Positions 9,329 to 45,920 of a stretch of 64,000 bases of DNA are shown here, one piece after another. Origin of the DNA: a bacterium (GTDB lineage Bacteria > Electryoneota > B3-LCP); assembly GCA_026394195.1 (NCBI GenBank), contig JAPKYS010000043.1:83131-147130 (forward strand), given 5' to 3'. Made by a program: the position numbers and the translations under genes. Every line of letters starts with the position of its first letter. Within the stretch, counting starts at the first letter, position 1. The notes beneath the pieces are model-generated. The model searched no databases and was not told where the DNA came from. It saw only the letters and a list, made by a program, of their open reading frames with translations.

Positions 9329-9360
9329 TGCAGATTTGGTGGCACGAGGCACGAGGCACG
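9329..9360. repeat. Tandem heptamer array (GGCACGA x4) immediately after the stop codon
   Basis: Direct reading: GGCACGAGGCACGAGGCACGAGGCACGAG. Confidence 0.9.
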
Positions 9361-9479
9361 AGGCACGAGAATTCCGTAGTCGGGGTCGTCCCTGACCCTG
9401 ACGTTGCTAATTTTTTTAAAGCAATGAATCAAGCACTCGTTGACATCAAGTCGTTGAAATGACTAAAAAAAGCAGACTT

Positions 9480-9862: not shown

Positions 9863-10028
9863 GAGAGTGTTGAAAAATAATAAAAATAGAGTCATTGCGA
9901 GCGTAGCGAAGCAATCTCGTAGCTTGGTTCTACCGGATTGCTTCGGGACTTCGTCCCTCGCAATGACGCAAAAAGTATTTTTCAACGCTCTCATATTAAG
10001 ATATCTTAATAACCTTCTGGAGCCACCC

Positions 10029-13157: not shown

Positions 13158-13479
13158 ATATTTCATTCCCTTGTTTATATCTATGTTGGTTATGCGTCAG
13201 GTCTCCGCTGCGCTATAGAACTGCCGCAACGATATTCCCAGCCTTGTCGGATTCCGGACGCAGGCTAAAGCCTTTGCCGGAATGACAAGGTTCTCTTAAC
13301 TGACTGCTGATTGCGCTTATACTTGGTTACTTGTTCACTTGTTCACCTGGTTACTATTTCAAGGGCGTCCCTACCGGTCGCCCTTGGTGTTTTCAGCACC
13401 ATTCATGTGATATTTTTAACTTGTTTTTCCGCTAAATTTTCTTTATATTCTTAGACTTCTAAAAAACCTCGAGGAACAA

Positions 13480-16533: not shown

Positions 16534-18170
16534 ACAATCTCTTAAATATAAAAACTCCCTGCGAAGGTCAAGCTCTGGCGCAAAAAGCCTTCTACGGAAT
16601 CGAAAATCACGGGCTCGCCAACCTGCGCCAGGTCTATTGGAACCTGCCCACCGAAGCGCTCTATGAAGAGATCGCCTTCCGCGGCGAAGCGAAAATCACC
16701 CATATGGGACCGATCCTTGCCTGGACTGGAAAACACACGGCTCGTTCCGCCAACGACAAATTCGTGGTCAAAGAAGGCACCACCGAAGACAAAATCTGGT
16801 GGGGCGAGTACAATCGTCCTTTCAGCGAAGACAAGTTCAACGACCTGTTCAACCGCATGCAGGGCTACCTGCAGGGGCGCGACGTCTTTGTGCAGGACTG
16901 CTATGCCGGAGCTGATCCTAATTACCGGATGCCCATCCGCGTCATCACCGAATTAGCCTGGCACAGTCACTTCGCTCGCAACATGTTCATCCCCACGAAA
17001 ACGCTGAACGAGATGCAGCGACACGTCCCGGATTTCACGATCCTGGCGCTTCCCGGGTTCAAAGGAATTCCGCAGATTGACGGTACGGCTTCCAACACTT
17101 TCATCGTGTTGAATTTCGCCGCAAAGATGTGCATCATCGGGACGACGGCCTACGCCGGTGAAATCAAGAAGTCTGTCTTCTCGATTCTGAATTACCTGCT
17201 GCCGTTGCAGGGCGTTATGCCCATGCACTGCTCGGCCAATATCGGCCCGAAAGGCGACACCGCTCTCTTCTTCGGTCTTTCCGGAACCGGCAAAACGACC
17301 CTGTCGGCTGACCCGGGCCGCGGGCTGATCGGCGACGATGAACACGGCTGGTCCGATGACGGCATCTACAACTTTGAAGCGGGCTGCTACGCCAAGGTGA
17401 TCGCCCTATCCCCCTCTGCAGAACCGCAAATCTACGCCTGCACCCAGAAGTTCGGCACTATCCTGGAAAACGTCCCCTTTGATCCGGTCACCCGCAGAAT
17501 CGATCTGGACGATGAATCCATCACCGAAAATACCCGCTGTTCCTACCCGATGGAATACATCGACAATGCCGTGCCGGAAAAGATGGGCGGACATCCCAAG
17601 AACATCATTCTGCTGACCTGCGACGCCTCGGGCGTCATGCCCCCCATCGCCAAACTGACCCCGGATCAGGCCCTCTACCAATTCATCTCGGGGTATACCT
17701 CCAAGATCGCCGGCACCGAAGTCGGTCTGGGCAAGGAACCGGAAATGACCTTCAGTACCTGCTTCGGAGGTCCCTTCATGGTGCACCATCCTTACTTCTA
17801 TGGCGATCTGCTGAAACGCAAGATCCTGAAGCACGATGCTCACTGCTGGCTGGTCAACACCGGCTGGGTGGGAGGCAAGTACGGCATCGGCAAGCGCATC
17901 AGCATCAAGTACACCCGCGCTCTGCTGAACGCGGCGTTGGACGGCAAGCTGCTCAAGGTGGAATACAAGCAGGACCCGGTCTTCGGTTTCTCCGTGCCCA
18001 TGTCCTGCCCGGACGTGCCGGACAGCGTCCTGAACCCGGCTGAAGCCTGGTCCGACAAGAACGCCTACATGAAGAGCTACAAGGAACTGGCGTCCCGCTA
18101 CATCGAGAACTTCAAGAAGTTCGAAGACGGCTGCCCGCCGGAAGTCAAAGCGGCAGGGCCGAAGAGGTAA
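16530..18170 (+). CDS. pckA: Phosphoenolpyruvate carboxykinase (ATP)
   Basis: Kinase-1a/Walker motif FFGLSGTGKTTLS and PEPCK-ATP signature regions. 4-nt overlap with the upstream aminotransferase. Confidence 0.93.
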   Translation: MNNLLNIKTPCEGQALAQKAFYGIENHGLANLRQVYWNLPTEALYEEIAFRGEAKITHMGPILAWTGKHTARSANDKFVVKEGTTEDKIWWGEYNRPFSEDKFNDLFNRMQGYLQGRDVFVQDCYAGADPNYRMPIRVITELAWHSHFARNMFIPTKTLNEMQRHVPDFTILALPGFKGIPQIDGTASNTFIVLNFAAKMCIIGTTAYAGEIKKSVFSILNYLLPLQGVMPMHCSANIGPKGDTALFFGLSGTGKTTLSADPGRGLIGDDEHGWSDDGIYNFEAGCYAKVIALSPSAEPQIYACTQKFGTILENVPFDPVTRRIDLDDESITENTRCSYPMEYIDNAVPEKMGGHPKNIILLTCDASGVMPPIAKLTPDQALYQFISGYTSKIAGTEVGLGKEPEMTFSTCFGGPFMVHHPYFYGDLLKRKILKHDAHCWLVNTGWVGGKYGIGKRISIKYTRALLNAALDGKLLKVEYKQDPVFGFSVPMSCPDVPDSVLNPAEAWSDKNAYMKSYKELASRYIENFKKFEDGCPPEVKAAGPKR

Positions 18171-18195
18171 GGCAAAAGGAAAAAGGTAAAAGTAA

Positions 18196-18228
18196 AAAGG
18201 GGCGATCCGGGTGGGTCGCCCTTTTTGA
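18196..18228 (+). terminator. Rho-independent terminator (GGGGCGATCCGGGTGGGTCGCCC + T-tract)
   Basis: A GC stem followed by TTTTTG. The same stem sequence recurs after other genes. Confidence 0.6.
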
Positions 18229-18291: not shown

Positions 18292-18364
18292 AATATAGGG
18301 AGGCACAAACTTCAAACAAAACCTGATTTGAGTAAACATCTATAATCAAATGTGGAGACCCGCC

Positions 18365-20410
18365 ATGAAGAAGAGCTGGATACTCGCAACGGCAGCCGTG
18401 ATCATAATCGCTGGCGTTTTTACCCCTTACACCAAGGTTCACGCCATTGTCGATCTGGGTTGGGCGATCCACCAACCGGGCCCAGCCCATGGTGATGATT
18501 CCCCTGTTGGCGTCGAAGTGGATGCTTCAGGAAATGTCTACGTAGTAGGACATAGTTACCACGATGAAATCACCGGATATGACTATCTGACTATCAAATA
18601 CACACCTGATGGGGCAGTATTGTGGAGATCGTATTATGATAGCCCATCGGAAAATTCTTGGGATGTTCCTATGGATTTTATCCTCAATGATCAAGGGAAT
18701 GTTTACATCACGGGAGAGTGCATCGGGGACGAAAATAATCTTGATTTTGCTACCGTCTGCTTCAATTCGCAGGGACGGCAGTTGTGGGAAGCCATCTACG
18801 CCGGTCCAAACCAATTCAATGATGAGGCGCAAGCTCTCGCGCTGGACGCGGCCGGTAACCTTTACGTTACGGGTCGCTCGTACACTTCCGTAGATAATGC
18901 GGATTTCGCCACTATCAAGTACAATTCGCTGGGCGAACAACAGTGGGTGGCGCTCTACAACGGTCCGGGTAACCGCACGGACTATCCTGTAGATATTGCG
19001 GTCGATGGAACCGGAAATGTATATGTCACAGGAAATAGCGATTCTGATCCATCGCCGCGTTTCAATTACGATTTCGCCACGATTAAATATAATTCAATGG
19101 GCGTACAGCAATGGGTAGTATACCACAACGGTCCCTACAATGGGAATGATTACCCGGTGGCGTTAGCCCTGGATGGTGACGCCAACGTTTATGTGACCGG
19201 CCAGAGCCAGAATGCATCGAACTCAGACTGCATAACCGTGAAATACAACTCGAATGGGGTTCAACAGTGGGTACACGGGTACACCGAGACTCAGGTTGGT
19301 TATCCCATACCCTTTTCGATGAAGTTGGATCGTCAGAATAACGTCGTCATTGCCGGTTGCTACTCGGGAGAAACGGGAAGCAAATACTTCACTCTGAAGC
19401 TGAATAGCGCCGGGGTGCAGCAGTGGGCCAGACTATACCAGAGTAGTGGCACCTGGGGGGAACGAGCCAACGCAGTCGCGGTTGACCGCGACCTGAACGT
19501 TTATGTAACGGGTGAGAGTCACACTTCTTCGTGGTTTCCCACTTGCACTACATTAAAATATGACCAGGCAGGTACTTTGAAATGGACTGCTTACTATGAC
19601 TCGGATCTTGACGCTCTGAAGAGTGGGGTGGATTTAGCCATCGATCGACACGGAAACGTCCTCGTCGCTGCCCAATTTATGTTCATGGAGCAGGCAGATT
19701 ACGATTTTCTCACGCTTAAGTACCACCAAGTTCAGGGTGACGTGGCTGTAGGAATGATTCCGACAGTTTCTCCAATTCAGATCCCCCCAACTGGAGGCAG
19801 TTTTAGCTATCATCTCACCACGGTCAACGGCGTTCGCGACAGTTTGCCGGTTGATCTGTGGTGGCAGATCAACTTTCCAGGCTTATATCCGCGAGTAGTT
19901 AACATAGGATTACAATCACGGGATCTCCCCTTGGACACTTGCGTCATCGTTCGTACCCAGAACGTCTCCGCCAACGTTCCGGCAGGGACATACCAGTATG
20001 CTGCCTATATTGGTGATTTCCCCGAAATAGTTTGGGCGTCCGATACTCTGACCTTTGAGAAACAATCAGACAGTTCCGACCCGTGGGTAACAACTCAAGA
20101 TGAGAGTTTTTCAGGTCCATTTGAAGAGACAGAGCCTGCCACTCCTACGCAGTTCGAACTTTTATGCGTTTTCCCCAACCCCTTCAACCCCAGCACCACC
20201 ATCAGCTACGCGTTGCCGACAGCGGGTCTGGTGAATCTATCCGTCTACGACATTTCGGGGAAGAAGGTGGTGGAGCTGGTGAATGGAACCAGAGACGCAG
20301 GAAAGCAGGAGGTCACTTTCGACGGTTCAAATCTCCCATCGGGAATTTATTTCTGCCGCCTGCAGGCGGGGGTGTGCACCGCGGTGGAGAAGATGGTGCT
20401 GCTGAAATAG
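18365..20410 (+). CDS. SBBP beta-propeller repeat protein with a T9SS C-terminal sorting domain
   Basis: Repeated NVYVTG.S....D..TIKYN..G...W...Y.G units. C-terminus ends ...GIYFCRLQAG..TAVEKMVLLK. Confidence 0.8.
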   Translation: MKKSWILATAAVIIIAGVFTPYTKVHAIVDLGWAIHQPGPAHGDDSPVGVEVDASGNVYVVGHSYHDEITGYDYLTIKYTPDGAVLWRSYYDSPSENSWDVPMDFILNDQGNVYITGECIGDENNLDFATVCFNSQGRQLWEAIYAGPNQFNDEAQALALDAAGNLYVTGRSYTSVDNADFATIKYNSLGEQQWVALYNGPGNRTDYPVDIAVDGTGNVYVTGNSDSDPSPRFNYDFATIKYNSMGVQQWVVYHNGPYNGNDYPVALALDGDANVYVTGQSQNASNSDCITVKYNSNGVQQWVHGYTETQVGYPIPFSMKLDRQNNVVIAGCYSGETGSKYFTLKLNSAGVQQWARLYQSSGTWGERANAVAVDRDLNVYVTGESHTSSWFPTCTTLKYDQAGTLKWTAYYDSDLDALKSGVDLAIDRHGNVLVAAQFMFMEQADYDFLTLKYHQVQGDVAVGMIPTVSPIQIPPTGGSFSYHLTTVNGVRDSLPVDLWWQINFPGLYPRVVNIGLQSRDLPLDTCVIVRTQNVSANVPAGTYQYAAYIGDFPEIVWASDTLTFEKQSDSSDPWVTTQDESFSGPFEETEPATPTQFELLCVFPNPFNPSTTISYALPTAGLVNLSVYDISGKKVVELVNGTRDAGKQEVTFDGSNLPSGIYFCRLQAGVCTAVEKMVLLK

Positions 20411-20478
20411 TCTTCAACTTTGAACTTTTAACTTTCAACTTGTAACTTCAAAAGGGGCGCAGAGTTTGCACCCTTTTT
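20411..20478 (+). repeat. Conserved post-stop element (AACTT-type heptamer array CAACTTTG-AACTTTT-AACTTTC-AACTTGT-AACTTCA) plus terminator hairpin; copy 1
   Basis: Near-identical copies at 22269-22340 and 22630-22700. Confidence 0.8.
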
Positions 20479-20526: not shown

Positions 20527-20591
20527 ACGCTTGCCGAAAGGTTGAAATCCAAGTTTTTTAAAACAACAACATAATTGTGGAGGGACGTCTG

Positions 20592-22268
20592 ATGAGCATC
20601 TCAATAATACGCACCGGGGCAGCTGTAATCGTTGTTACCTTGCTGACTGTGCTTCCCGCCTTCAGTCAGGTTACCCAGGAATGGGTCCGGTACTATGATG
20701 GATCCGGAAACCAGAACGATCAAGCTTCCGCGATGGTTGTGGACCCGATGGGGAACGTCATCGTGACCGGTCAGTCCCAGGGCGAGTGGCTGACGATAAA
20801 GTACGATTCGGATGGTAATACACTGTGGTCGATACGTGAAGACGAAGGAGAATGGCCGACCGCGCTGGCGGTCGACGAAATCGGCGACATCTACCTTACC
20901 GGTTATAAATATACCGGATCGGCGATAGAATTATTCAACATTATTACCATAAAGTACAATGCTGACGGAGATCTGCTTTGGGGCGCCTCATACAATGGAC
21001 CCAGCAATCTGGACGATTTGGCCACCGCGATCTGTCTGGATGATTCGGGCTACATTTACGTCACAGGCTCAACAGTCTATTCCTTCGGTACCCAGGACCT
21101 GATTGTAATAAAGTACGACTCAACAGGAGGTTATTCCTCCACCTGGCCAAATACTGGCTTGGGAATTGGAGTTAGAATCTATAATGGGGGCGGCAGCAAC
21201 GGTTACGATTGCGGGCAGTCAATAGCCGTGGATCACGCCGGAAACGTGTATGTAACCGGAGAATCAGCGTCGGGAGGGTCAGGATCGAATATGGACTATG
21301 CGACCCTAAAGTACAGCGCCAGCGGAAACCAGCTCTGGGCAGCGCGTTATGATGGTCCGGTCAACGGAACTGATACGCCGGTTGGCTTGGTTCTGGACGA
21401 TCTGGGTAACGTTTACGTAGCCGGTACCTCCCTGGGCTTCATGAACCAGGGTAATTATCGTAATGACTACGCAACCGTCAAGTATGACGGCGACGGCAAT
21501 CAGATGTGGGCAGCGCGCTACGATGGTCCGATACAATATGAAGATTACTGCCACGACATTGCCATTGATGCTGCCGCCAATATTTATGTGACCGGATGCG
21601 CAGCCAATTCAAGTTATGATATAGCTACAGTAAAGTATAATTCCAATGGAACAGAATTATGGGTTGCCATCTACGACGGTTCTAACCATAATGTAGATCA
21701 AGGCAACACTTTAATGGTTGATCAGGCTGAGAACGTCTACGTGGCAGGTCAAGTTTCAGCCGGCTCATGCGGCTGGGATATTGCGACGGTCAAATATGAT
21801 GCGGCTGGGACTCAAATTTGGGCCATCGAATTCAATGCCGCTGATAGCCTGGGTGACAGACCCGTAGCGATAGCCCTGGATTCAGAAGATAACGTATATG
21901 TGCATGGGACTTCCGGAACAGACGGTGCCTGGGATAACTATGTTACGATCAAATATAACCAGGTTAATGGGATTGAACCAGGGTGGTCTTCGGGTAATCG
22001 ACCTATCAGCTATAAGCTGAATTCCAATTTCCCCAACCCCTTCAACCCCACCACCACGATTAGCTATTCTCTACCGACAACGAGTTTGGTGAATCTGTCA
22101 ATTTATGATGTGTCAGGGAAAAAGGTGGCTGAGTTGGTAAATGGAATGAGAGCAGCAGGAGCCAAGAAGATCACCTTCGACGGCTCTAACCTCACCTCCG
22201 GCATCTATTTCTGCCGATTGCAGGCAGGGGAGTACTCAGCAGTGCAGAAGATGATTCTCCTGAAATAG
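20592..22268 (+). CDS. SBBP beta-propeller repeat protein with a T9SS C-terminal sorting domain
   Basis: Same repeat architecture as the previous gene. C-terminus ends ...GIYFCRLQAGEYSAVQKMILLK. The ATG at 20592 is preceded by GGAGGGA. Confidence 0.8.
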   Translation: MSISIIRTGAAVIVVTLLTVLPAFSQVTQEWVRYYDGSGNQNDQASAMVVDPMGNVIVTGQSQGEWLTIKYDSDGNTLWSIREDEGEWPTALAVDEIGDIYLTGYKYTGSAIELFNIITIKYNADGDLLWGASYNGPSNLDDLATAICLDDSGYIYVTGSTVYSFGTQDLIVIKYDSTGGYSSTWPNTGLGIGVRIYNGGGSNGYDCGQSIAVDHAGNVYVTGESASGGSGSNMDYATLKYSASGNQLWAARYDGPVNGTDTPVGLVLDDLGNVYVAGTSLGFMNQGNYRNDYATVKYDGDGNQMWAARYDGPIQYEDYCHDIAIDAAANIYVTGCAANSSYDIATVKYNSNGTELWVAIYDGSNHNVDQGNTLMVDQAENVYVAGQVSAGSCGWDIATVKYDAAGTQIWAIEFNAADSLGDRPVAIALDSEDNVYVHGTSGTDGAWDNYVTIKYNQVNGIEPGWSSGNRPISYKLNSNFPNPFNPTTTISYSLPTTSLVNLSIYDVSGKKVAELVNGMRAAGAKKITFDGSNLTSGIYFCRLQAGEYSAVQKMILLK

Positions 22269-22493: not shown

Positions 22494-22649
22494 ATGAAAT
22501 CGTACCGAACTTTCGCAGTAGCAATCGTTACAGTTTTGATAACCTTCACGATTGCGCAGGCTCAGTGGACCCAGGCCTGGTGCCCCACAGCTCTGCTATG
22601 GGTTCGCTTAATCCCCCTTGCCTCCCCCTCCCCAACTTTCAACTTTTAA
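22494..22649 (+). pseudogene. Remnant of a secreted-protein gene: a signal peptide plus about 25 codons, running straight into copy 3 of the post-stop element
   Basis: MKSYRTFAVAIVTVLITFTIAQAQ... then the frame ends inside CAACTTTCAACTTTTAACATTCAACTTATAAC. This is consistent with an internal deletion. Confidence 0.55.
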
Positions 22650-22700
22650 CATTCAACTTATAACTTTAAATTACAACGGGCGGTCAGATGACCGCCCGTC
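22630..22700 (+). repeat. Post-stop AACTT-heptamer element, copy 3 (diverged), plus a terminator hairpin (GGGCGGTCagatGACCGCCC)
   Basis: Direct reading. Confidence 0.7.
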
Positions 22701-36599: not shown

Positions 36600-36650
36600 G
36601 GAAATAATTGGAGATTGGAGATTGAAGATTGAAGATTGAAGAATTAAGAG
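36600..36650. repeat. Tandem heptamer array (GATTGGA x2, GATTGAA x3, GAATTAA) directly after the stop codon
   Basis: Direct reading. Confidence 0.9.
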
Positions 36651-36654
36651 GGGG

Positions 36655-36900
36655 AGTTTCCGGCGAAATAGCCTTGTCATTCCGGCGAGGCCCGCCCCAT
36701 TGGGGTCCGGAATCAGACAAGGCGGGGGAAGAGTAGCTCACTGTCGTGCTGTCGACTCTCCGCAAGAGGTAGGGTGGACTAGCGAAGCGTAGTCCACCAC
36801 CCCATCTAATTTATTTAATGGTGGACTACACCCTGCGGGTTAGTCCACCCTACTTCTACCAGCCACCAGCAACTATAGGGGTTGCGTCAGGTCTTGCGGA
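36655..36900. repeat. Block of dispersed small palindromic elements (CCTTGTCATTCCGGC; GCTGTCGACTCTCCGCA; GGTGGACTA...TAGTCCACC hairpins)
   Basis: Motifs recur at 13255-13290, in inverted orientation at 45795-45835, and as AATCAGACAA at 45757. Confidence 0.6.
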
Positions 36901-37076
36901 AACGCAGTTGACGTGTGACCTGACGCTGGAAAAACTGACCAACCCACAGCAAGCTGGGAGGAAGCGAGGGATTTCCTGGAACCCCTCTTGAAATTTTGAA
37001 GAAAGGGGTTGATTTTGGGAGGGAAGAGGAGTATAATTACTTTGCAGAATGCAGATAAAATAAAATGAGGTGTTAA

Positions 37077-38888
37077 ATGAGCTATCTCGATCAAGCTATT
37101 GAAAAAGGATATGCCATAATAACAGGTGAAGAAAACAAAAAACGCATCACCTACATGGCTGTTAATCACTCTGAAAGATATTCAGATCCGGAGGAACAAG
37201 TCCGCGCAGAGTATTGGGCTGAATTAATTTTTCGATACGGCTATGAACCTTCCCGCATCGGCGTTGATGTTACTGTTCCAGATAGAACTCCCAAGGATGC
37301 GGCAGATTTAGTTGTATTCTCAAATGATACTCGCACACGACCTTTCGCGGTAATCGAATGCAAACGAGATGGCGTAACCGATGCTGAATTCGCTCAAGCC
37401 GTCGAACAAGCTTGCGGCAACGGCACCTGGGCGAAATTCCGCGCCCAATACATCGGTGTTATCGCCGGGCAGACCCGCCGTTTCCTCGATTTCTCCGAAA
37501 AATATGGCGTTCTGGAACGTGAGGCTAACATTATCGCTGATTTGCCTCGCCAGTACGGAAAACCAGAGGAATGGCGTTTTCTAAAAGGCACCGCAGACGA
37601 TATCCAGCCTGTCAGTAAAGAAACCCTCATAGCCACCATAAAAAAATGCCACCAAACCCTATGGGGTGGCGGGCGCTTATCTCCCCCCATGGCTTTCGGT
37701 GAATTATGCAAACTCCTCTTTGTAAAAATCCAAGACGAAAAAGTACCACGGAAAAATGGTCAACCCTATGAATTTCAGATAAAAACTCACGAGCCAAGCC
37801 GTAAGCTCGCTGAACGAATCAAAGCTATTTATGAAATTGCTAAGAAAAAAGATCCGCAAGTATTCACCGACACAATTCGTATAGATGATGCAACATTGCG
37901 CATCCTTGTTTCACATATGGAAGCAGTAAGTTTCAGCAAGACCGATTTAGATACGAAAGGTGTCGCCTTCGAGCAGTTCATGGATGGATTTTTCAAAGGA
38001 GATTTTGGGCAATACTTTACACCACGGGAAATTATTGCATTCGCAGTTGAAATGATGCAACCTAAATCGGATGATTTAGTTATCGATCCAGCTTGCGGCT
38101 CTGGCGGTTTCCTTCTTTATGCTCTTGATTCAGTTCGTCGCGAGGCTGCAAGTTATCATGCTTTGGATAGCGTGGATCATTACAAACATTGGCACGATTT
38201 CGCAGAAAAACGCCTCTTTGGTATCGAAATCAATGACGAGATCGCCCGAGTTGCCAAGATGAATATGATCTTACATGACGATGGCCATAGTAACGTCGTT
38301 GGTGAAGACGCTTTAGATCGTTTCGAGCGCATTCGTGAACGCACCAGTAATAATGGGTTTAAAGAAAATAATTTCGATCTAATTTTGACTAACCCTCCAT
38401 TTGGCTCGCAGGTCAATTTGACGGAACGACCTTACTTATCCGATTATGAACTTGGTAATAAGGAGGATAAGAAAGGAAAACGTTCCCCACGTACGAACCA
38501 AAAAACGGAGATACTCTTTATCGAGCGTGTCTTCCAATTTCTAAAGGCTGGAACCGGTCGCGCGGCCATGGTTTTGCCGGATGGAATTCTTACAAATTCA
38601 TCTCTTCAAGATGTCCGAGATTTTATACTTAAAAACTTCCAACTTCTTGCTGTAGTAAGTTTACCACAGACTTCTTTCGCTCATTTCGGTGCAGGAGTTA
38701 AAGCAAGTCTAGTTTTTCTCCGTAAACGGGCAGATAATGAAAAGTCCAGCGATAATGAAGCAATCTTCATGGCCACGCCTGAGAAAATCGGGTATGACGC
38801 AACGGGCCGTAAGTGCGATAATCAGTTGCCGGAAGTTATCAAGCAATACGTTGAATTCAAGAAGAACCCGGCACGTTTTTTCGTCTAA
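37077..38888 (+). CDS. Type IIB (BcgI-like) restriction-modification catalytic subunit: an N-terminal PD-(D/E)xK endonuclease domain fused to a gamma-class N6-adenine DNA methyltransferase
   Basis: Nuclease motif D..LVVF ... VIECKRD. Methylase motif I VIDPACGSGGFL and motif IV LILTNPPFG. The length (603 aa) and domain order match the BcgI A subunit. Confidence 0.7.
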   Translation: MSYLDQAIEKGYAIITGEENKKRITYMAVNHSERYSDPEEQVRAEYWAELIFRYGYEPSRIGVDVTVPDRTPKDAADLVVFSNDTRTRPFAVIECKRDGVTDAEFAQAVEQACGNGTWAKFRAQYIGVIAGQTRRFLDFSEKYGVLEREANIIADLPRQYGKPEEWRFLKGTADDIQPVSKETLIATIKKCHQTLWGGGRLSPPMAFGELCKLLFVKIQDEKVPRKNGQPYEFQIKTHEPSRKLAERIKAIYEIAKKKDPQVFTDTIRIDDATLRILVSHMEAVSFSKTDLDTKGVAFEQFMDGFFKGDFGQYFTPREIIAFAVEMMQPKSDDLVIDPACGSGGFLLYALDSVRREAASYHALDSVDHYKHWHDFAEKRLFGIEINDEIARVAKMNMILHDDGHSNVVGEDALDRFERIRERTSNNGFKENNFDLILTNPPFGSQVNLTERPYLSDYELGNKEDKKGKRSPRTNQKTEILFIERVFQFLKAGTGRAAMVLPDGILTNSSLQDVRDFILKNFQLLAVVSLPQTSFAHFGAGVKASLVFLRKRADNEKSSDNEAIFMATPEKIGYDATGRKCDNQLPEVIKQYVEFKKNPARFFV

Positions 38889-38989
38889 GCCCCGCCGAAC
38901 CGGGCAAGGCGAACTGCTTTGCCGTCAAGCGGGGCGTAACGAAAGAGCGGTTTGATCCCAAATTTATTATTCATGGTGGCAATCAAACT

Positions 38990-40270
38990 TTGAAGGGAAT
39001 AACTTCTTACTTACTAGGTGATTTAGTCGTGCGAGAACCGGAATATGGTTCGGGCGAAAGAGCCGTACCAGTTAGAGATCCAAATGATATAAAATATATT
39101 CGTATCACTGACTTCAATGACGACGGAATTGTACCTGCCAACGAATTTGCCACTGCTGAGAATATCGAAGACCGATTTCTGCTGGCTGATGGTGATATTC
39201 TATTTGCAAGGAGCGGAGCAACAGCGGGCAAGACATTTATCTTTTCGTCAGAAATAGGGAAATCAATATTTGCGGGCTACTGTATTCGATTCAGGTTCGA
39301 TATCAAAAAGGTCATTCCTAAGTTCGTTTACTATTATACGAAATCAAATCGTTATCGGGCATGGGTTCGATCGATTCAACGTCCTTCCGGTCAACCGAAC
39401 ATCAATAAGGAGGAGTTTAAATCATTTACTATTCCCCTTCCTCCCACGTCCGTTCAGCTTAAGCTTGTTCGAGAGATGGAGCAAGAGCAAGAATCAAGGC
39501 GTCGCAATTTGGAACAGGCTGAAGTTCTACTTGATGGATTAGATGCATTTCTTCTTGATTGTATTGGGCTAGCTATACCTATGCTAGATAATCGCTTGGC
39601 TTATGCTTTGAAGCAATCAGTGCTTCATAGGTCGAAACAGATCGGGGCGGATTATTTTCATCCAGAACGAATTAATGCAATTAGGGCTATCCAGACAGCG
39701 AAAAAAGTAAAGCACGCCGTGCGACTGGAAGATATCGCCTGTTTCTTGCGTGATTATACAACCGAATATAAACCGGAGCAATACCTAGGACTAGCAGGGG
39801 TTCAAAGCCATACTGGTGAACTAACCGAAACAACAGAAGAACCAGGCTCAGGGCAAGCTTCGATCTTCGAGGAAAACGATGTATTGTTCGCTCGCTTGCG
39901 CCCCTACTTGAATAAGGTTTGGCGAGCAGAACAGGACGGCGTATGCTCGACAGAATTTCACGTTATCCGTATTAGGAATGATGTGAATTACCTGCTGCCT
40001 GATTATCTCGCGGCTGTCCTGCGTTCGTCTGTCGTTGTTGCTCAGACCAAACATATGATGACTGGCAACACCCACCCACGACTCGCCAACGAGGATGTTG
40101 TGGACTTGCTCATTCCTATACCCAGCATTAATATGCAGCATGAGGTCGTGGAAGAATTACAAAACCGTCGCATGCAGGCCCGCCGCCTGCGCGAAGAAGC
40201 GGCTAAAGAGTGGAAGGCGGCTAAGGCTCGTTTTGAGGAAAAGTTGTTAGGCGAGGAGAAAATAAAATGA
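38990..40270 (+). CDS. Restriction-modification specificity (S) subunit with two target-recognition domains
   Basis: Duplicated TRD architecture with a central conserved region and a C-terminal coiled region (EELQNRRMQARRLREEAAKEW). TTG start. The reading frame is open for about 45 more codons upstream with no canonical start codon. Confidence 0.72.
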   Translation: MKGITSYLLGDLVVREPEYGSGERAVPVRDPNDIKYIRITDFNDDGIVPANEFATAENIEDRFLLADGDILFARSGATAGKTFIFSSEIGKSIFAGYCIRFRFDIKKVIPKFVYYYTKSNRYRAWVRSIQRPSGQPNINKEEFKSFTIPLPPTSVQLKLVREMEQEQESRRRNLEQAEVLLDGLDAFLLDCIGLAIPMLDNRLAYALKQSVLHRSKQIGADYFHPERINAIRAIQTAKKVKHAVRLEDIACFLRDYTTEYKPEQYLGLAGVQSHTGELTETTEEPGSGQASIFEENDVLFARLRPYLNKVWRAEQDGVCSTEFHVIRIRNDVNYLLPDYLAAVLRSSVVVAQTKHMMTGNTHPRLANEDVVDLLIPIPSINMQHEVVEELQNRRMQARRLREEAAKEWKAAKARFEEKLLGEEKIK

Positions 40271-40938
40271 ATCAATCACTAATCTATCTGATGGATGAAA
40301 TTTGCGCAGGTGTAGAAATCTACTTTACGGGTCGCTTAGGGAGTCAGTATTTAAAAACTGCCTTTCTTCTATGTGATGATTATTCAGAGCTTATCTCAAA
40401 ACTTTTCCTACTTATCGACAATCCGAAATGGACCGAGATGAAAGCCAATTCTAATTTTAAAAGTTACCCAGATATAATGGCTGAGGTAGAAACAACTACT
40501 TCAAAAAATAATCCTAATAAATTGGAAAAAGTAAGAGAATTGATTAGCGCAATGAAAAAACGTAGAAAGCGCCGTAATGACTTTTTTCATTCTACGAGTC
40601 TACTTGATTTGAGCGTAACGAATAGAAATTGTGTCGAAGCCTTTTGTGATCTTCTAGAATATGGGGATATTTTGTTTGGGGTAAATTGGCGCACGACGTT
40701 AGAAGGTTCTAGAAATCTATCGACCTTTGATGTATTGCTCCGGTTAGAAAGGCATTCATTTTCTGATCCATCAATCACTCAAAAAATGAATCGTGTTCTG
40801 CAGAATTGGCCTAGAAATATTAAAAATGCGAAGCGGGCAGGTGTCCATTTGGCAGAATATCCAGAAGACCTTCATCTAAGACTGTGTGTAACCTGGGGAG
40901 GAAACGAACTTAGAGATAAATTAAAAACTTTACTCTGA
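40267..40938 (+). CDS. Small low-GC protein with a HEPN-like R-x4-H motif (RRNDFFHS), translationally coupled to the S gene
   Basis: ATGA overlap with the S-gene stop. GC is far below the neighbouring genes. No family assigned. Confidence 0.45.
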   Translation: MNQSLIYLMDEICAGVEIYFTGRLGSQYLKTAFLLCDDYSELISKLFLLIDNPKWTEMKANSNFKSYPDIMAEVETTTSKNNPNKLEKVRELISAMKKRRKRRNDFFHSTSLLDLSVTNRNCVEAFCDLLEYGDILFGVNWRTTLEGSRNLSTFDVLLRLERHSFSDPSITQKMNRVLQNWPRNIKNAKRAGVHLAEYPEDLHLRLCVTWGGNELRDKLKTLL

Positions 40939-41024
40939 CCAAATCCCCGAGCCAACCCACCCCTCTACTGTAGATTCACCCGTCGGGGTCAGGGGCGACC
41001 CCGACTATGTTTATCGCTCTCAAA

Positions 41025-41065
41025 GTGGAGAATGGAGAATGAAGAGTGACGAATGACGAATTGAA
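41025..41065. repeat. Tandem heptamer array (GAGAATG x2, AAGAGTG, ACGAATG, ACGAATT)
   Basis: Direct reading. Confidence 0.85.
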
Positions 41066-41094
41066 GAAAAAAAACGACCCTTACGCGGTTTTTT

Positions 41095-41150
41095 CATCAG
41101 CGTAATCAGTGTCATCAGCGGTTTCAGCGGTTCAGACTATTTTCTGGATT
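41095..41150. repeat. Dispersed intergenic repeat (GCGTAATCAG ... TTCAGACWATTTTC), with a second copy at 45728-45770
   Basis: Shared blocks read in both locations. Confidence 0.55.
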
Positions 41151-41313
41151 CCGGCCCGTTCCTCATCTATCCCCCCGTCCTGCGGACACCCCCCTTTTTA
41201 AGGGGGGCTTCGAACTCTCTCGCGCCAGCGTATCTCTTACCCCCTTTAATAAGGGGGGGCAGGGGGGGATCAATTCGTCCTCCCCCTAAAACCCCGCAAA
41301 TGTGATCCACGTC

Positions 41314-41342
41314 TTGTTTTTTCGGAAATTATTCCGTATATT
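41314..41342 (+). promoter_or_regulatory. Sigma70-like promoter TTGTTT-N17-TATATT
   Basis: Read directly. Confidence 0.4.
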
Positions 41343-41379
41343 ATGGGAATCACTCAAACCCGATCAAACCGAGGAGCTC

Positions 41380-43446
41380 ATGAACCTGCACCAATGCTTT
41401 ATCTGCGTCATACTCGCGCTGTTGTCGCTGGCGATTGTCGCCGGCAGTGTGCCTCTTGCCCCTGAAACCGAAGCCCGGCTGAGGGCTTCCGGTCAGTGGG
41501 ACCAGATCAAGGACGCCGTCCGCCAGGCGCGCTCCCTTGGAGTCGACGCTCCCACCACCCGCCCCATCAACGTGCGCCAATTTGTCAACACGGATATCGA
41601 TCTGCACGTCCTGACCATTCTGGTCGATTTTTCCGACAAACCCGCCAACTACAGCTTGTATCCCACGTCGCACTACGAGGAGATGCTCTATTCGCAGGGG
41701 GTCTGGTCGACCGGCAGTATGCGGGATTACTACCGGGAAAATTCCTACAACCAGATCGACATCGTCGGGGAAGCCGCCGGATGGTATCGCATGCCGCAGC
41801 CCTATTCCTATTACGTCGGCACGAATTACGGCATGGGGAGTTATCCCAACAATTCGCAGAAATTGACCGAAGACGCCGTGGCGGCCGCCGATCCCTTCGT
41901 CGACTTCTCACAATATGACGACGATCAGGACGGCTATGTGGACGGGCTCTTCATCGTGCACGCCGGAGTTGGCGCTGAACAGAGCGGCAGTCACAACGAC
42001 ATCTGGTCGCACGCCTGGGTGACTCACGCACCCATCTACGTGGATGGCGTGACGGTGCACAACTATTCCACCGAACCCGAAAACGGCAACATCGGCGTGT
42101 TTTCCCACGAACTGGGTCACGCTCTTTTCGGACTCCCCGATCTGTACGATTACGACTACGATTCGAACGGCACAGGTAATTGGTCTCTGATGTCCGGAGG
42201 CAGCTGGGGTGGCGGTGGAACCCGCCCGGTGCATCTGGATGCGTATTCCAAGACATTGTGCGGTCTGGCAACCGGGACTAACGTCACGGCGAACCTGACC
42301 CACGTCGCCTTCCCGCAGGTCGAAACCAATAACGTGGTCTATCGGCTCTGGTCCGATGGAGCTTACGGACCCCAGTATTTCCTGGTGGAAAACCGCCAGC
42401 GGGTCGGGTTCGATTTATCCCTGCCAGCATCGGGTCTGCTGATCTATCACATCGAAGAAGAGGATGGCAGCAACAACCATCAGTGGTATCCCGGTTACAC
42501 CAGCAACGGGCATTACCTGGTGGCGGTCGAACAGGCGGATGGTCTCTGGCAGTTGGAACATAACACCAACGGCGGCGATGGCGGCGATCCCTGGCCCGGG
42601 ACCACTAACAAGCACGAATTTGACGTCAGCAGCACGCCAGACACCAAAAATTACGCCTTCCAACCGACCATGGTGGCGATCGGCAATATATCGAATTCGG
42701 CTGATACCATGTACGCCGATCTTTCGGTGACCATTTACGTGCCTAACGTCAATATCACCACCTCGCCGGTGGCTCCTCCGGTGGTCATCCCGGTTAACGG
42801 TGGGAGTTTCCAATATAACGCCCAGCTCAGCAATCCGGGGACGATTCCGGAATCGGTCCAGGTCTGGAATCGCCTGCGGACGGGAAATACCTTCTTCCAG
42901 ATCTTCGGTCCGAGACCGCTGACCGTCCCGGGCGGAGCCAACCTGAACCGCACCGTGACGCAGTACGTTTCCGGTAATATTCCGGCTGGGTCCTACAGCT
43001 TCGTATCGTATGTGGGGACTTACCCCGGCATCATCTCCGACAGCAGTTTCTTCAACGTCACCAAGAATGCGCTCGCGGACGGCGGTCCCTGGATCGGCGC
43101 ATCCTACGCCGAGGGTGATTTGTTCGATGAATATCCGACGTCAGACGTAAGGGCACAGCATGCTGCGCCCCTACAACCGGCGCAATTTGCCCTGCAGGGC
43201 GCGTTTCCGAATCCCTTCAATCCGACAACGGCTATCCGCTTCGATTTACCGGACGTCAGCCCGGTAACGCTGACGGTTTACGACATTAATGGGCGTATCG
43301 TCAGGGCGATGCATGCATCGCCCCTACAATCGGGATCGCAGGAGATAACGTTCGACGGATCGAATCTGGCTTCGGGGATTTACCTGTACCGGCTGGAAGC
43401 GGGCAGCTATACGGCGGCGGGCGGGAAGATGGTGCTTTTAAAATAG
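41380..43446 (+). CDS. M6-family (immune inhibitor A-like) zinc metalloprotease with a T9SS C-terminal sorting domain
   Basis: HExxH in FSHELGHALFGLPDLYD. C-terminus ends ...GIYLYRLEAGSYTAAGGKMVLLK. The ATG at 41380 is preceded by GAGGAG and followed by a signal peptide. Confidence 0.8.
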   Translation: MNLHQCFICVILALLSLAIVAGSVPLAPETEARLRASGQWDQIKDAVRQARSLGVDAPTTRPINVRQFVNTDIDLHVLTILVDFSDKPANYSLYPTSHYEEMLYSQGVWSTGSMRDYYRENSYNQIDIVGEAAGWYRMPQPYSYYVGTNYGMGSYPNNSQKLTEDAVAAADPFVDFSQYDDDQDGYVDGLFIVHAGVGAEQSGSHNDIWSHAWVTHAPIYVDGVTVHNYSTEPENGNIGVFSHELGHALFGLPDLYDYDYDSNGTGNWSLMSGGSWGGGGTRPVHLDAYSKTLCGLATGTNVTANLTHVAFPQVETNNVVYRLWSDGAYGPQYFLVENRQRVGFDLSLPASGLLIYHIEEEDGSNNHQWYPGYTSNGHYLVAVEQADGLWQLEHNTNGGDGGDPWPGTTNKHEFDVSSTPDTKNYAFQPTMVAIGNISNSADTMYADLSVTIYVPNVNITTSPVAPPVVIPVNGGSFQYNAQLSNPGTIPESVQVWNRLRTGNTFFQIFGPRPLTVPGGANLNRTVTQYVSGNIPAGSYSFVSYVGTYPGIISDSSFFNVTKNALADGGPWIGASYAEGDLFDEYPTSDVRAQHAAPLQPAQFALQGAFPNPFNPTTAIRFDLPDVSPVTLTVYDINGRIVRAMHASPLQSGSQEITFDGSNLASGIYLYRLEAGSYTAAGGKMVLLK

Positions 43447-43667: not shown

Positions 43668-45629
43668 ATGCGCAGTTCACCTTTCTTTATTCTTGCGGTT
43701 CTGCTTCTGACCGCCACCACTGCCTTCGCTCAGAACCTAACTGTCGAAGTCACACCGCAAATCAACACCGTTGAGATCCCACCTGAAGGCGGATCGTTCA
43801 GCTTTTATGTTACGGTCGCCAACCACGAACCATTACCCCAGCAAGTCACCGCATGGTGCCTCCTTACCACCCCGATGGGAGACCAACGAAACATCCTCCT
43901 TCCCGTGACATTTGACCTTGCGGCCGTGCAAATCCAAGAGCGATACTATACACGATTCGTTCCAGCAGCTTCGCCTGTTGGAAATTATGTATTGACGGCG
44001 AACATCGGCATCTACCCCAATACCATTTGGGATAGCGATCAATGTACCATTAGTAAGCTGAACCCGCCGGTGTGGGTAGCGCGCTATAGTAGCCCCGGGA
44101 ATTTTGGAGATGGAGCTAATTCCATCGCATTGGACAGCAGCGGCAATGTCTATGTGACGGGTCATTACCAAGGGGGTGGGACTGATTACGACTATGCCAC
44201 CATCAAGTACAACTATGCCGGGCAGCAACAGTGGGTAGTGCGCTACAACGGACCGGATAACGGCTGGGATTACCCTACCAGCCTGGCGGTGGACGGCAGC
44301 GGCAACGTCTACGTAACGGGTGGAAGTGATGGAAGCTGGACTTATGCCGACTACGCCACCATCAAGTACAATTCCACCGGAGTTCAGGAGTGGGTGGCGC
44401 GCTACAACGGGCCGGGAAATAGCTCTGATGGGGCTACCAGCCTGGCGGTGGACGGCAGCGGCAACGTCTACGTGACAGGTGAAAGCTGGGGAAACGGGAC
44501 CGCTGCCGATTACGCCACTGTCAAATACAACTCCGCCGGGCAGCAGCAGTGGGTGGCGCGCTACGATGGTACTGGAAATGATGATGATTGCGCTAATTCC
44601 ATCGGATTAGACGGCTTTGGCAACGTCTGCGTTACGGGCAGCAGTCATGGTAGTGGGTCTGGCAGGAACTACGTCACCATTAAATACAACGCCAACGGCA
44701 ATATGCTCTGGGTGGATCGTTATATTGGATCGTGGGATGATGAAGCTAAATCTCTCACAGTGGAAAGTGGTGGTAACGTCTACGTGACCGGTAAAAGCGA
44801 TGGAGACTATGGAACTATCAAATACGACGCTAACGGTAATCGGCTTTGGATGGCTCGCTACAATGGACCGGCGAACATAAACGATGAAGCAAATTCCATC
44901 GCTCTGGACAGTTTCGGTAACGTCTACGTGACGGGCCACAGTTATAGTAGTTGGACTGGTGGGGACTACGCCACGATTAAATATGACGTCGATGGCAATC
45001 AACTCTGGGTCGCGCGCTACAATGGATCTGGAAATTATGAAGATGCAGCTAGATCTCTCACAGTAGACTCCTACGGTAATGTCTATGTGACAGGCTATAG
45101 CCAGGGAATTTGGAATAATATGGACTATACCACTATCAAATACGATTCTAACGGCAATCAGCTTTGGGTGGCGCGCTACAATGGGCCGGGGAATAATTTT
45201 GACGCGGCTTCTTCACTCGCTTTGGATACTTTTGGCAACGTTTATGTGACGGGCAGGAGCGTAGGAAGCAGGACTGATAAAGACTTTTGCACCATCAAAT
45301 ATTCCGCTACTGATCTGCCCAACTGGCAGCAGCCAGTGGCTACGGTTTTCGGCGCGCCGCTGCCAGCGGAATACCGTTTGGAGCAGAACTACCCCAATCC
45401 CTTCAACCCCACCACTACCATCAGTTATCAGCTTCCATCCAGAAGCCAGGTGAAGTTGGAGGTGTTCGACGTTTCCGGGCGGTTGGTTACCACTTTAATC
45501 AACGGCTGGAGGGAGGCGGGGTCGCATGAGGTGACCTTCGACGGGTCGGGGTTAGCGGCGGGGGTGTATGTTTACCGACTGCAGGTGGGGGAGTATACCG
45601 GGGTGCAGAAAATGGTGCTTTTAAAATAG
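43668..45629 (+). CDS. SBBP beta-propeller repeat protein with a T9SS C-terminal sorting domain
   Basis: About 10 repeats of GNVYVTG.S...DYATIKYN..G...WVARYNGPGN. C-terminus ends ...GVYVYRLQVGEYTGVQKMVLLK. Confidence 0.8.
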   Translation: MRSSPFFILAVLLLTATTAFAQNLTVEVTPQINTVEIPPEGGSFSFYVTVANHEPLPQQVTAWCLLTTPMGDQRNILLPVTFDLAAVQIQERYYTRFVPAASPVGNYVLTANIGIYPNTIWDSDQCTISKLNPPVWVARYSSPGNFGDGANSIALDSSGNVYVTGHYQGGGTDYDYATIKYNYAGQQQWVVRYNGPDNGWDYPTSLAVDGSGNVYVTGGSDGSWTYADYATIKYNSTGVQEWVARYNGPGNSSDGATSLAVDGSGNVYVTGESWGNGTAADYATVKYNSAGQQQWVARYDGTGNDDDCANSIGLDGFGNVCVTGSSHGSGSGRNYVTIKYNANGNMLWVDRYIGSWDDEAKSLTVESGGNVYVTGKSDGDYGTIKYDANGNRLWMARYNGPANINDEANSIALDSFGNVYVTGHSYSSWTGGDYATIKYDVDGNQLWVARYNGSGNYEDAARSLTVDSYGNVYVTGYSQGIWNNMDYTTIKYDSNGNQLWVARYNGPGNNFDAASSLALDTFGNVYVTGRSVGSRTDKDFCTIKYSATDLPNWQQPVATVFGAPLPAEYRLEQNYPNPFNPTTTISYQLPSRSQVKLEVFDVSGRLVTTLINGWREAGSHEVTFDGSGLAAGVYVYRLQVGEYTGVQKMVLLK

Positions 45630-45724
45630 CCGCTGGTTGCTTGTTGTTGGTGGCTGGTAGGGGCGTTTAATTAAACGCCCTGTCGAGGAACACAAAGGTG
45701 AGGGCGATCCACCTGAGGCGGGTC

Positions 45725-45835
45725 GCCCTTTTTTTATCGGCGTAATCAGGGAAATCTGTGATTCAGACAATTTTCCCAGCGTCAGGGTTTCTATATCCCG
45801 GCTGTCGACTGCGGAGAGTCGACAGCACAGCAACG
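45725..45835. repeat. Dispersed repeat copy, comprising the GCGTAATCAG...TTCAGACAATTTTC block and the perfect palindrome GCTGTCGACTGCGGAGAGTCGACAGC
   Basis: Matches motifs at 41095-41150 and 36700-36770. Confidence 0.55.
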
Positions 45836-45920
45836 GACATGCTTCGTACGACTACGTCGTCCAGAAGCATGCCACCCACGGCCTTTTCCTGATGGCTGAA
45901 TGCTGATTGCTGACTGCTTC

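Follow-up and report, generated by a model that had tools for sequence, protein, structure and literature searches.

Analysis of a 64,000-nucleotide stretch of DNA (the window; positions 83,131 to 147,130 of the forward strand of contig JAPKYS010000043.1, assembly GCA_026394195.1) identified a cassette of three genes at 37077-40938. The source record at NCBI is a metagenome-assembled ‘bacterium’. By their sequences, genes 1 and 2 fit a self-sufficient restriction-modification (RM) enzyme of the BsaXI/BcgI type (type IIB-like), consisting of a nuclease-methylase fusion and a specificity (S) subunit. Gene 3, judged by its sequence and predicted structure, encodes a stand-alone HEPN protein whose catalytic signature is intact. 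We favor, with modest confidence, the view that the whole is a type IIB-like RM system equipped with a PrrC-like HEPN back-up effector. The genes, domains and motifs of the cassette are as follows.

37077-38888, plus strand: gene 1 open reading frame (ORF), 603 amino acids (aa)
37188-37490, plus strand: HSDR_N_2 nuclease domain of gene 1, residues ~38-138 (Pfam match over residues 38-108, E = 4.7e-10)
37305-37307, plus strand: nuclease residue D77, in ADLVVF
37356-37364, plus strand: nuclease residues E94-x-K96, in VIECK (E94-C-K96)
37950-38786, plus strand: N6_Mtase domain of gene 1, residues 292-570 (Pfam, E = 6.3e-40)
38085-38111, plus strand: S-adenosylmethionine-binding motif DPACGSGGF, residues 337-345
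38391-38402, plus strand: catalytic motif NPPF, N439-F442
38990-40270, plus strand: gene 2 ORF, 426 aa from a TTG start
39029, plus strand: alternative start of gene 2, as in the 413-aa NCBI call
40267-40938, plus strand: gene 3 ORF, 223 aa
40267-40677, plus strand: HEPN core of gene 3, residues 1-137 (H1 3-21, H2 26-51, insert 52-81, H3 83-108, H4 119-137)
40570-40590, plus strand: RRNDFFH, R102-H108 (the R-x4-H motif of HEPN ribonucleases, RNases), at the C-terminal end of helix 3
40681-40935, plus strand: C-terminal helical extension of gene 3, residues 139-223, family-specific

A preliminary description, drawn from the sequence of the window alone, had placed three co-directional ORFs here, and its coordinates are exact. 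NCBI annotates gene 1 as ‘N-6 DNA methylase’ (MCX6640624.1), gene 2 as ‘restriction endonuclease subunit S’ and gene 3 as ‘hypothetical protein’.

The assignment of gene 3 is based on a family alignment and a structure prediction. In the 59-member alignment, residues R102, R103, N104, F106, F107 and H108 are invariant in all 59 members, and at least 90% of the members keep D105. There are 29 invariant columns, including D37 and E41 in helix 2. The invariance of the motif is therefore far beyond that of a chance R-x4-H. The AlphaFold2 model computed from this alignment is all-helical, with a predicted local distance difference test score (pLDDT) of 89.7 and a predicted template-modelling score of 0.87. 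Its helices span residues 3-21, 26-51, 67-81, 83-108 and 119-137, followed by four more up to residue 220. The model matches the published definition of the HEPN fold: the motif ends helix 3, the acidic residues D37 and E41 are located in helix 2, and an insert separates helices 2 and 3. The HEPN-type motif recognized in the preliminary description is thus borne out. Because the R-x4-H active site is intact, gene 3 is most likely a metal-independent RNase working as a dimer. The C-terminal extension contains its own conserved residues (W141, R149, N150, E161, D167, P168, G192, P199-E-D201, H203, R205 and G211), and is a candidate docking or sensor module.

Curated libraries do not recognize gene 3. 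In Pfam, only HEPN_Cthe2314 (PF18730) matches it, with 14.1 bits (E = 0.047), below the gathering threshold of 27.1. The same model matches weakly in 13 of the 59 family members (best E = 6.5e-4), suggesting a remote relation to that clade, for which a conserved neighborhood was not reported in the 2013 survey (PMC3710099). NCBIfam and PADLOC gave no match to gene 3, and PHROGs only matches at chance level. The family profile found nothing significant in the PDB, and tblastn found no homologue in the plasmid and phage collections. A word-indexed search returned 222 homologues at roughly 50-70% identity, all of them unnamed proteins. Their named hosts are Schekmanbacteria, Acidobacteria, Armatimonadetes, Chloroflexi, a planctomycete (Tepidisphaeraceae) and Nostoc, to which the loci on genome contigs add Verrucomicrobia and Proteobacteria. 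A profile search run exhaustively over 1.84 billion cluster representatives yielded only 125 matches, many of which are fragments, indicating that the family is small.

The association of gene 3 with the RM genes is conserved. The order gene 1-like, S, gene 3 recurs in about 30 loci from more than 10 phyla, so the third ORF of the preliminary description keeps its position in homologous RM loci. Among the 21 gene 3-bearing genome loci (related loci retrieved for comparison are labeled with L-numbers), 18 have an S gene directly 5' of gene 3 on the same strand. The remaining three are one locus with only ~200 nt of upstream sequence and two decayed C-terminal fragments (L025 and L026). Gene 1 precedes S wherever the contig is long enough (13 loci; it is split across reading frames in L013 and L023). 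Gene 3 also follows S in about 10 distinct close metagenome relatives, whose contigs were retrieved with gene 1. In every called locus, gene 3 either overlaps S or starts no more than 12 nt after it.

Genes 1 and 3 also diverge together. Their identities to the window proteins are correlated across 21 distinct loci (Spearman 0.69, p = 5e-4). The identity of S ranges from 25% to 75% independently of gene 1, as expected because target-recognition domains (TRDs) swap. A distant branch of gene 3, 30% identical, keeps the DD.CEL and RN.FFH motifs. In the three further loci that represent it, gene 3 is again the third gene, located after S and a 666-714-aa HSDR_N_2-N6_Mtase protein with 28% identity to gene 1. 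The persistence of synteny in this branch indicates that the triad is old and maintained, and a link kept down to ~30% identity indicates that it is under selection. Chance adjacency of gene 3 is ruled out by the conserved order, the tight junctions, the co-divergence and the 30%-identity branch.

Several of the related loci show individual features. In the Schekmanbacteria locus (L001:6717-8004), the S region is composed of two ORFs of 163 aa and 238 aa, the second of which is overlapped by gene 3. The two ORFs are the parts of a disrupted S gene or else a pair of half-S subunits. Directly after the HEPN gene, the Tepidisphaeraceae locus (L003:8715-10313) encodes, on the same strand, a 532-aa protein with a NucS_C nuclease domain. 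Within 8 kb there are also genes for a large serine recombinase and a Mu Gam-like protein, suggesting a mobile-element context. In L037:4422-5972, gene 3 ends after ~20 residues beside an IS630-like transposase gene. In L040:6767-8494, a deletion joins a truncated S in frame to the middle of gene 3.

Other genes are found after S in related loci. In two gene 1 + S loci at 64-65% identity (L051:8191-10731 and L052:3790-6395), S is directly followed by a DndB-like protein of ~500 aa (ParB/DGQHR-type, ‘IDGNHRL’). The next gene encodes a DUF4917/SIR2-like protein in L051 and a TIR/nucleoside-deoxyribosyltransferase-like protein in L052. Where the relative of gene 1 has 42-44% identity, the genes after S encode an H-E-x-x-H protein and a 199-aa protein in L062:8636-10289, and a 350-aa and a 203-aa protein in L065:4180-5840. 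By eye, these small genes of L062 and L065 resemble ImmA/IrrE and RelA/SpoT. Since different defense-type genes follow S in related loci, the position after S behaves as an accessory effector slot.

From its N terminus, the gene 1 protein comprises a PD-(D/E)xK nuclease, then a helical connector, then a gamma-class N6-adenine DNA methyltransferase. Its conservation was analyzed in two sets, one of 13 orthologues from loci at 62-85% identity and one of 40 aligned sequences. In both, the nuclease residues E39, E40, E49, D69, D77, E94 and K96 are invariant, as are N439-P-P-F442 in the methyltransferase. In DPACGSGGF, D337, C340, G341, S342, G344 and F345 are invariant and the other three residues are at least 90% conserved. 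The nuclease-methylase fusion and the motifs quoted for it in the preliminary description are thereby upheld, including the nuclease motif, whose loss on alignment it had regarded as fatal to its reading. The nuclease core is kept as ADIVVY...FEIKK in a relative with only 28% identity to gene 1. Invariance across such deep divergence argues for an active nuclease.

Comparison with solved structures places gene 1 closest to BsaXI. Its best match in the PDB by sequence is the BsaXI RM subunit (phmmer, E = 1.1e-39), followed by type I HsdM (2.7e-23). The best match by fold is again BsaXI RM (Foldseek, E = 3e-26 over ~640 columns; best HsdM 2e-16). The AlphaFold2 model behind the fold comparison was built from an alignment restricted to sequences at least 72% identical, and was used only for this overall match. 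The predicted nuclease domain has the expected alpha-beta-beta-alpha-beta-beta order, at low pLDDT. The N-terminal 179 residues alone gave no phmmer match in the PDB.

Gene 2 contains Methylase_S in two stretches (Pfam, E = 1.9e-19), corresponding to two TRDs, and many PADLOC Specificity_I models match it in two stretches as well. This agrees with the two-TRD S subunit proposed earlier. A scan of 10 large window ORFs, of which 8 have at least 560 aa, and of the domains of the cassette proteins revealed no HsdR, helicase or ResIII. Likewise, no HsdR was found within 6-8 kb (less at contig ends) in nine annotated loci (L001, L003, L004, L027-L029 and L079-L081). A classical type I RM system was ruled out because these scans revealed no HsdR with its superfamily 2 (SF2) helicase motor and the nuclease domain is fused to the methylase instead. 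The preliminary description had preferred a BcgI-like to a type I system, and both the nearest solved relative and the scans for HsdR favor that choice. The third gene is absent in three close relatives with enough downstream sequence (L030, L044 and L045) and, by protein look-up, in L027. In these four loci the gene 1 + S pair is located between housekeeping genes, and since it occurs there alone it looks self-sufficient. In L029:6001-8502, a gene 1 orthologue (76% identity) is fused to the Methylase_S region in a single chain of 833 aa. That locus has neither a separate S gene nor a HEPN gene, and its next plus-strand neighbors are unrelated.

The likeness to BsaXI and BcgI consists of a nuclease, a connector and a gamma N6-adenine methyltransferase in one chain, a separate two-TRD S subunit, and no HsdR found. 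The identity to BsaXI is only ~25%, and gene 1 is considerably shorter (603 aa compared to 916 aa for BsaXI RM). It is too short to contain the C-terminal ‘paddle’ of BsaXI (around residues 811-823). Residues of the paddle are needed for BsaXI cleavage, in addition to the N-terminal E73, D90, E105 and K107, which are essential for cleavage and conserved across type IIB enzymes (PMC11997821). By homology, genes 1 and 2 are expected to restrict and methylate DNA as BsaXI and BcgI do. A third, HEPN gene is not described for BsaXI or BcgI in the literature searched, which throughout was open-access full text.

These features suggest how the cassette may work. Genes 1 and 2 would probably assemble as (RM)2S on the two-TRD S subunit, like BsaXI. 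The gene 3 RNase would be produced together with the RM/S complex through translational coupling to S. Since gene 3 contains no NTPase, either RM/S or the protein's own C-terminal helical domain would have to keep the RNase inactive. When restriction fails, is overwhelmed or comes under attack, for instance from an anti-restriction protein of a phage, gene 3 would be released, and the freed RNase would cut cellular or phage RNA, aborting the infection. In this scheme the RNase activity, the contact with RM/S, the trigger and the abortive outcome are all predicted by analogy, and the PrrC-like role is deduced from genomic context. A more specific form, which we put forward only tentatively, is that the HEPN protein serves as a dedicated minimal ‘guard’ subunit. 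Docked on S or RM through its C-terminal domain, it would become an active RNase once the complex is disturbed, for instance by DNA-mimic anti-restriction proteins or by an overload of unmodified DNA. Such a subunit would be an ancient, ATPase-free counterpart of PrrC.

Several observations weigh against the reading of the cassette as a type IIB-like system with a back-up effector. Gene 3 contains neither an ATPase nor another recognizable sensor domain to hold it latent. About one third of the close gene 1 + S loci have no gene 3, which is thus dispensable, and decayed copies are found, with an insertion sequence in L037, a deletion in L040 and the fragments in L025 and L026. A selfish toxin would give the same pattern of dispensability and decay. 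On the RM side, the AlphaFold2 model of gene 1 is mediocre (pLDDT 71), with pLDDT below 50 over residues 63-163. The phmmer alignment with BsaXI starts only at gene 1 residue 154, outside the nuclease, and leaves the counterparts of E73, D90, E105 and K107 unmapped. The top PADLOC model for gene 1 is MTase_I, labeled type I methyltransferase.

In one alternative, gene 3 is an addiction toxin, which would be neutralized by RM/S or by its own C-terminal domain and would stabilize a mobile RM cassette by post-segregational killing, with death or arrest of the cells that lose it. We consider this unlikely. The cassette contains no MNT or other antitoxin gene. Loss of the cassette would also remove the template of gene 3, and nothing suggests that the HEPN protein outlasts its neutralizer. 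RM systems alone already cause post-segregational killing, and the third genes of the sister loci (DndB-like, SIR2-like and TIR-like) are typical defense effectors. It is still less probable that gene 3 is a regulatory or processing RNase that tunes RM expression in the manner of a C protein, for example by delaying the nuclease in a new host. Such a role would suit an enzyme in which R and M are fused in one polypeptide and cannot be staggered by transcription, and the translational coupling to S, the ancient association and the co-divergence are compatible with it. However, gene 3 is missing beside many close gene 1 + S pairs, so establishment does not depend on it, and no characterized HEPN controller of an RM system was found in the literature searched. 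Nor did a conserved RNA structure or target emerge, though no search aimed at one was made.

The tight coupling to S and the family-specific C-terminal domain could also be explained if gene 3 were a structural or nucleic-acid-binding subunit that helps the restriction complex to form higher-order assemblies or to cleave strands, and not an independent RNase. Such a role would suit the question, raised for BsaXI and BcgI (PMC11997821), of how one nuclease domain per RM subunit cuts both strands on both sides of the site. We nevertheless regard it as improbable, to the same degree as a regulatory RNase: the invariant R-N-x3-H and the acidic residues of helix 2 mark HEPN RNases that are catalytically active, gene 1 + S pairs are also found by themselves, and unrelated effector genes occupy the third slot in sister loci. 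We give the least credence to the possibility that genes 1 and 2 are a methyltransferase module resembling type I or MADS, with a nuclease-like N-terminal domain that does not restrict DNA, leaving the HEPN protein, perhaps responsive to methylation, as the sole effector. The labels point in this direction, since PADLOC reports MTase_I, JGI names gene 1-type proteins ‘type I restriction enzyme M protein’, and the best NCBIfam matches of genes 1 and 2 are MAD2 (E = 4e-96, spanning nearly all of gene 1 including the N-terminal region) and MAD5. However, the scores are far below the equivalog cut-offs (322.7 compared to 720 for MAD2, 82.1 compared to 400 for MAD5) and the other six mad genes are absent, which rules out MADS membership. 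In addition, the catalytic residues of the nuclease do not vary even among deeply diverged relatives, no solved structure is closer to gene 1 along its full length than BsaXI, and some gene 1 + S pairs have no third gene at all.

The reading of gene 3 as a back-up effector of a type IIB-like enzyme takes its model from PrrC and RloC. In PrrC-EcoprrI and RloC, a HEPN nuclease gene is located inside an RM operon beside the S gene (hsdS), and the same second-line logic is proposed here. PrrC-EcoprrI is an anticodon nuclease within a type Ic hsdMSR operon, whereas the RM partner of gene 3 is type IIB-like, with HsdR not found. PrrC and RloC have a large N-terminal regulatory domain of the ATP-binding cassette (ABC) ATPase type; gene 3 has 223 aa, is all-helical, and matches no NTPase model of Pfam, NCBIfam or PADLOC. 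It has no detectable sequence similarity to PrrC, and the Pfam, NCBIfam and PADLOC scans gave no PrrC-type family. The absence of an ATPase domain rules out membership in PrrC/RloC.

At least 16 HEPN clades, some of them solo HEPN proteins that lack an ATPase, have been tied to RM operons, with PrrC as the experimental paradigm: a latent RNase that provides a second line of defense when restriction is neutralized (Anantharaman et al. 2013, PMC3710099). That survey proposed this logic for the RM-linked clades as well. Gene 3 is similar to several of these, namely AbiU2, solo AbiJ, ApeA, pEK499_p136 and HEPN-T, which are small Rx4-6H HEPN proteins in conserved RM neighborhoods with a predicted role in multi-pronged defense (PMC3710099). 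It reaches none of their Pfam models and has its own C-terminal helical domain of ~85 residues. Furthermore, in readable copies (the two decayed fragments excepted) it is always located directly after the S gene of an HSDR_N_2-N6_Mtase/S module. A HEPN-MNT toxin-antitoxin system (HepT-MntA) was ruled out because the adjacent antitoxin gene, encoding the MNT nucleotidyltransferase, is absent from the window cassette and the related loci. BREX membership was rejected as well, as a defining feature fails.

To our knowledge, latent-RNase back-ups of RM systems are known experimentally almost only from PrrC and RloC, which are large ATPase-HEPN fusions on type I systems. A HEPN protein in an RM operon is not a new concept, as it has been in the literature since 2013 (PMC3710099). 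The preliminary description had called the arrangement an unusual variant; this holds for its details and does not hold for its kind, since RM-linked solo HEPN proteins were already reported then. No description of a triad of HEPN and BcgI/type IIB genes was found in the literature searched, where absence is no proof. Specifically, we could not find in curated libraries or searchable literature this HEPN clade, its exclusive and ancient linkage to an RM fusion and S, or the interchangeable slot for a third gene. With three genes in ~4 kb, the cassette is a compact system for asking how an RM complex restrains and releases an RNase without an ATPase sensor, whether anti-restriction proteins trigger gene 3, and whether interchangeable abortive-infection effectors generally occupy the position after S in this RM family. 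If the ‘guard’ form of the mechanism is true, the position after S would be a general plug-in slot for abortive-infection effectors, whether HEPN, DndB-like, SIR2-like or TIR-like. Even if gene 3 is a hitch-hiking toxin, the analysis provides a new HEPN family and corrects the annotations ‘hypothetical protein’ and ‘N-6 DNA methylase’.

The three genes are closely packed. The ATG of gene 3 (40267-40269) overlaps the TGA of gene 2 (40268-40270), giving the ATGA noted in the preliminary description at 40267-40270, and a Shine-Dalgarno-like GAGGAG is located a few bases upstream of the gene 3 start. The guanine-plus-cytosine (GC) content is 0.55-0.59 in the flanks, 0.42-0.50 in genes 1 and 2, and 0.36-0.40 in gene 3, whose lower value had also been reported. 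Two candidate transcription signals are found at the ends.

37009-37037, plus strand: sigma-70-like promoter site TTGATT-17-TATAAT, the best in the region, 10/12 consensus matches, ~40 nt 5' of the gene 1 ATG
40982-41005, plus strand: terminator-like hairpin, the best in the region, 9-bp GC-rich stem, 44 nt past the gene 3 stop

Promoter sites are no more numerous in the region than expected from shuffling, and 37009-37037 is a consensus match only. A near-identical copy of the hairpin after gene 3 (40981-41007) is present at 9377-9403, suggesting that it is part of a host intergenic repeat. The ORF overlap, low GC content, promoter-like site and terminator-like hairpin together indicate one compact foreign operon of ~4 kb. 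Based on the GC profile and repeat content, the cassette extends roughly from 36,950 to 40,975. It is a self-contained operon and was acquired horizontally. A 98-aa minus-strand ORF at 36873-37169 overlaps the promoter region and the start of gene 1, and is most likely spurious.

Both flanks of the cassette contain repeats.

36607-36940, no strand assigned: left flank repeats, host intergenic elements
36607-36642, left flank: heptamer array, ATTGAAG x5
36672-36723, left flank: hairpin of the repetitive extragenic palindromic (REP) kind, similar to 13241-13290
36746-36764, left flank: short block identical to 45810-45828
36765-36857, left flank: inverted repeat
36856-36873, left flank: short block similar to 45643-45660
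41026-41258, no strand assigned: right flank repeats
41026-41061, right flank: heptamer arrays
41094-41132, right flank: 9-mer repeats
41188-41207 and 41239-41258, right flank: two CCCCCC...GGGGGG palindromes

The preliminary description had the cassette bracketed by dispersed repeats. The repeats do exist, but they do not form a matched pair at the boundaries of an island. Arrays and hairpins of the same types recur in other intergenic regions of the window (9341-9403, 13241-13355, 20413-20448, 22633-22667 and 45632-45918), typically just past stop codons. For this reason att-like island boundaries were ruled out, and the flank repeats are taken as host-genome elements on either side of the insert. 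The REP-like palindromes and the short blocks common to distant intergenic regions of the window are a dispersed host repeat family.

Tandem arrays with a unit of 7-8 nt that differs from site to site, in 3-5 copies, are found at 9341-9369, 13320-13355, 18169-18200, 20413-20448 and 22633-22667, and further ones at 36607-36642, 41026-41061, 45632-45658 and 45895-45918. All of them are intergenic. Several start a few bases from the end of an ORF (for example the ends at 18170, 20410 and 45629), and several adjoin GC-rich hairpins. The short tandem arrays and hairpins look like a genome-wide intergenic architecture.

The remaining window is ordinary chromosome. It contains gyrB and mutS2, together with genes for a sensor kinase, a tricorn-like protease and numerous proteins bearing sorting tails for type IX secretion. 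C-terminal Por_Secre_tail sorting domains (type IX secretion) are found in secreted-protein genes at 9867-11693, 18350-20410, 20577-22268, 41302-43446 and 43668-45629. SBBP beta-propeller repeat proteins belong to this Por_Secre_tail group, as does an M6 immune-inhibitor-A-like peptidase encoded directly downstream of the cassette. Inside 44178-44632 there is a tandem repeat of 159 nt.

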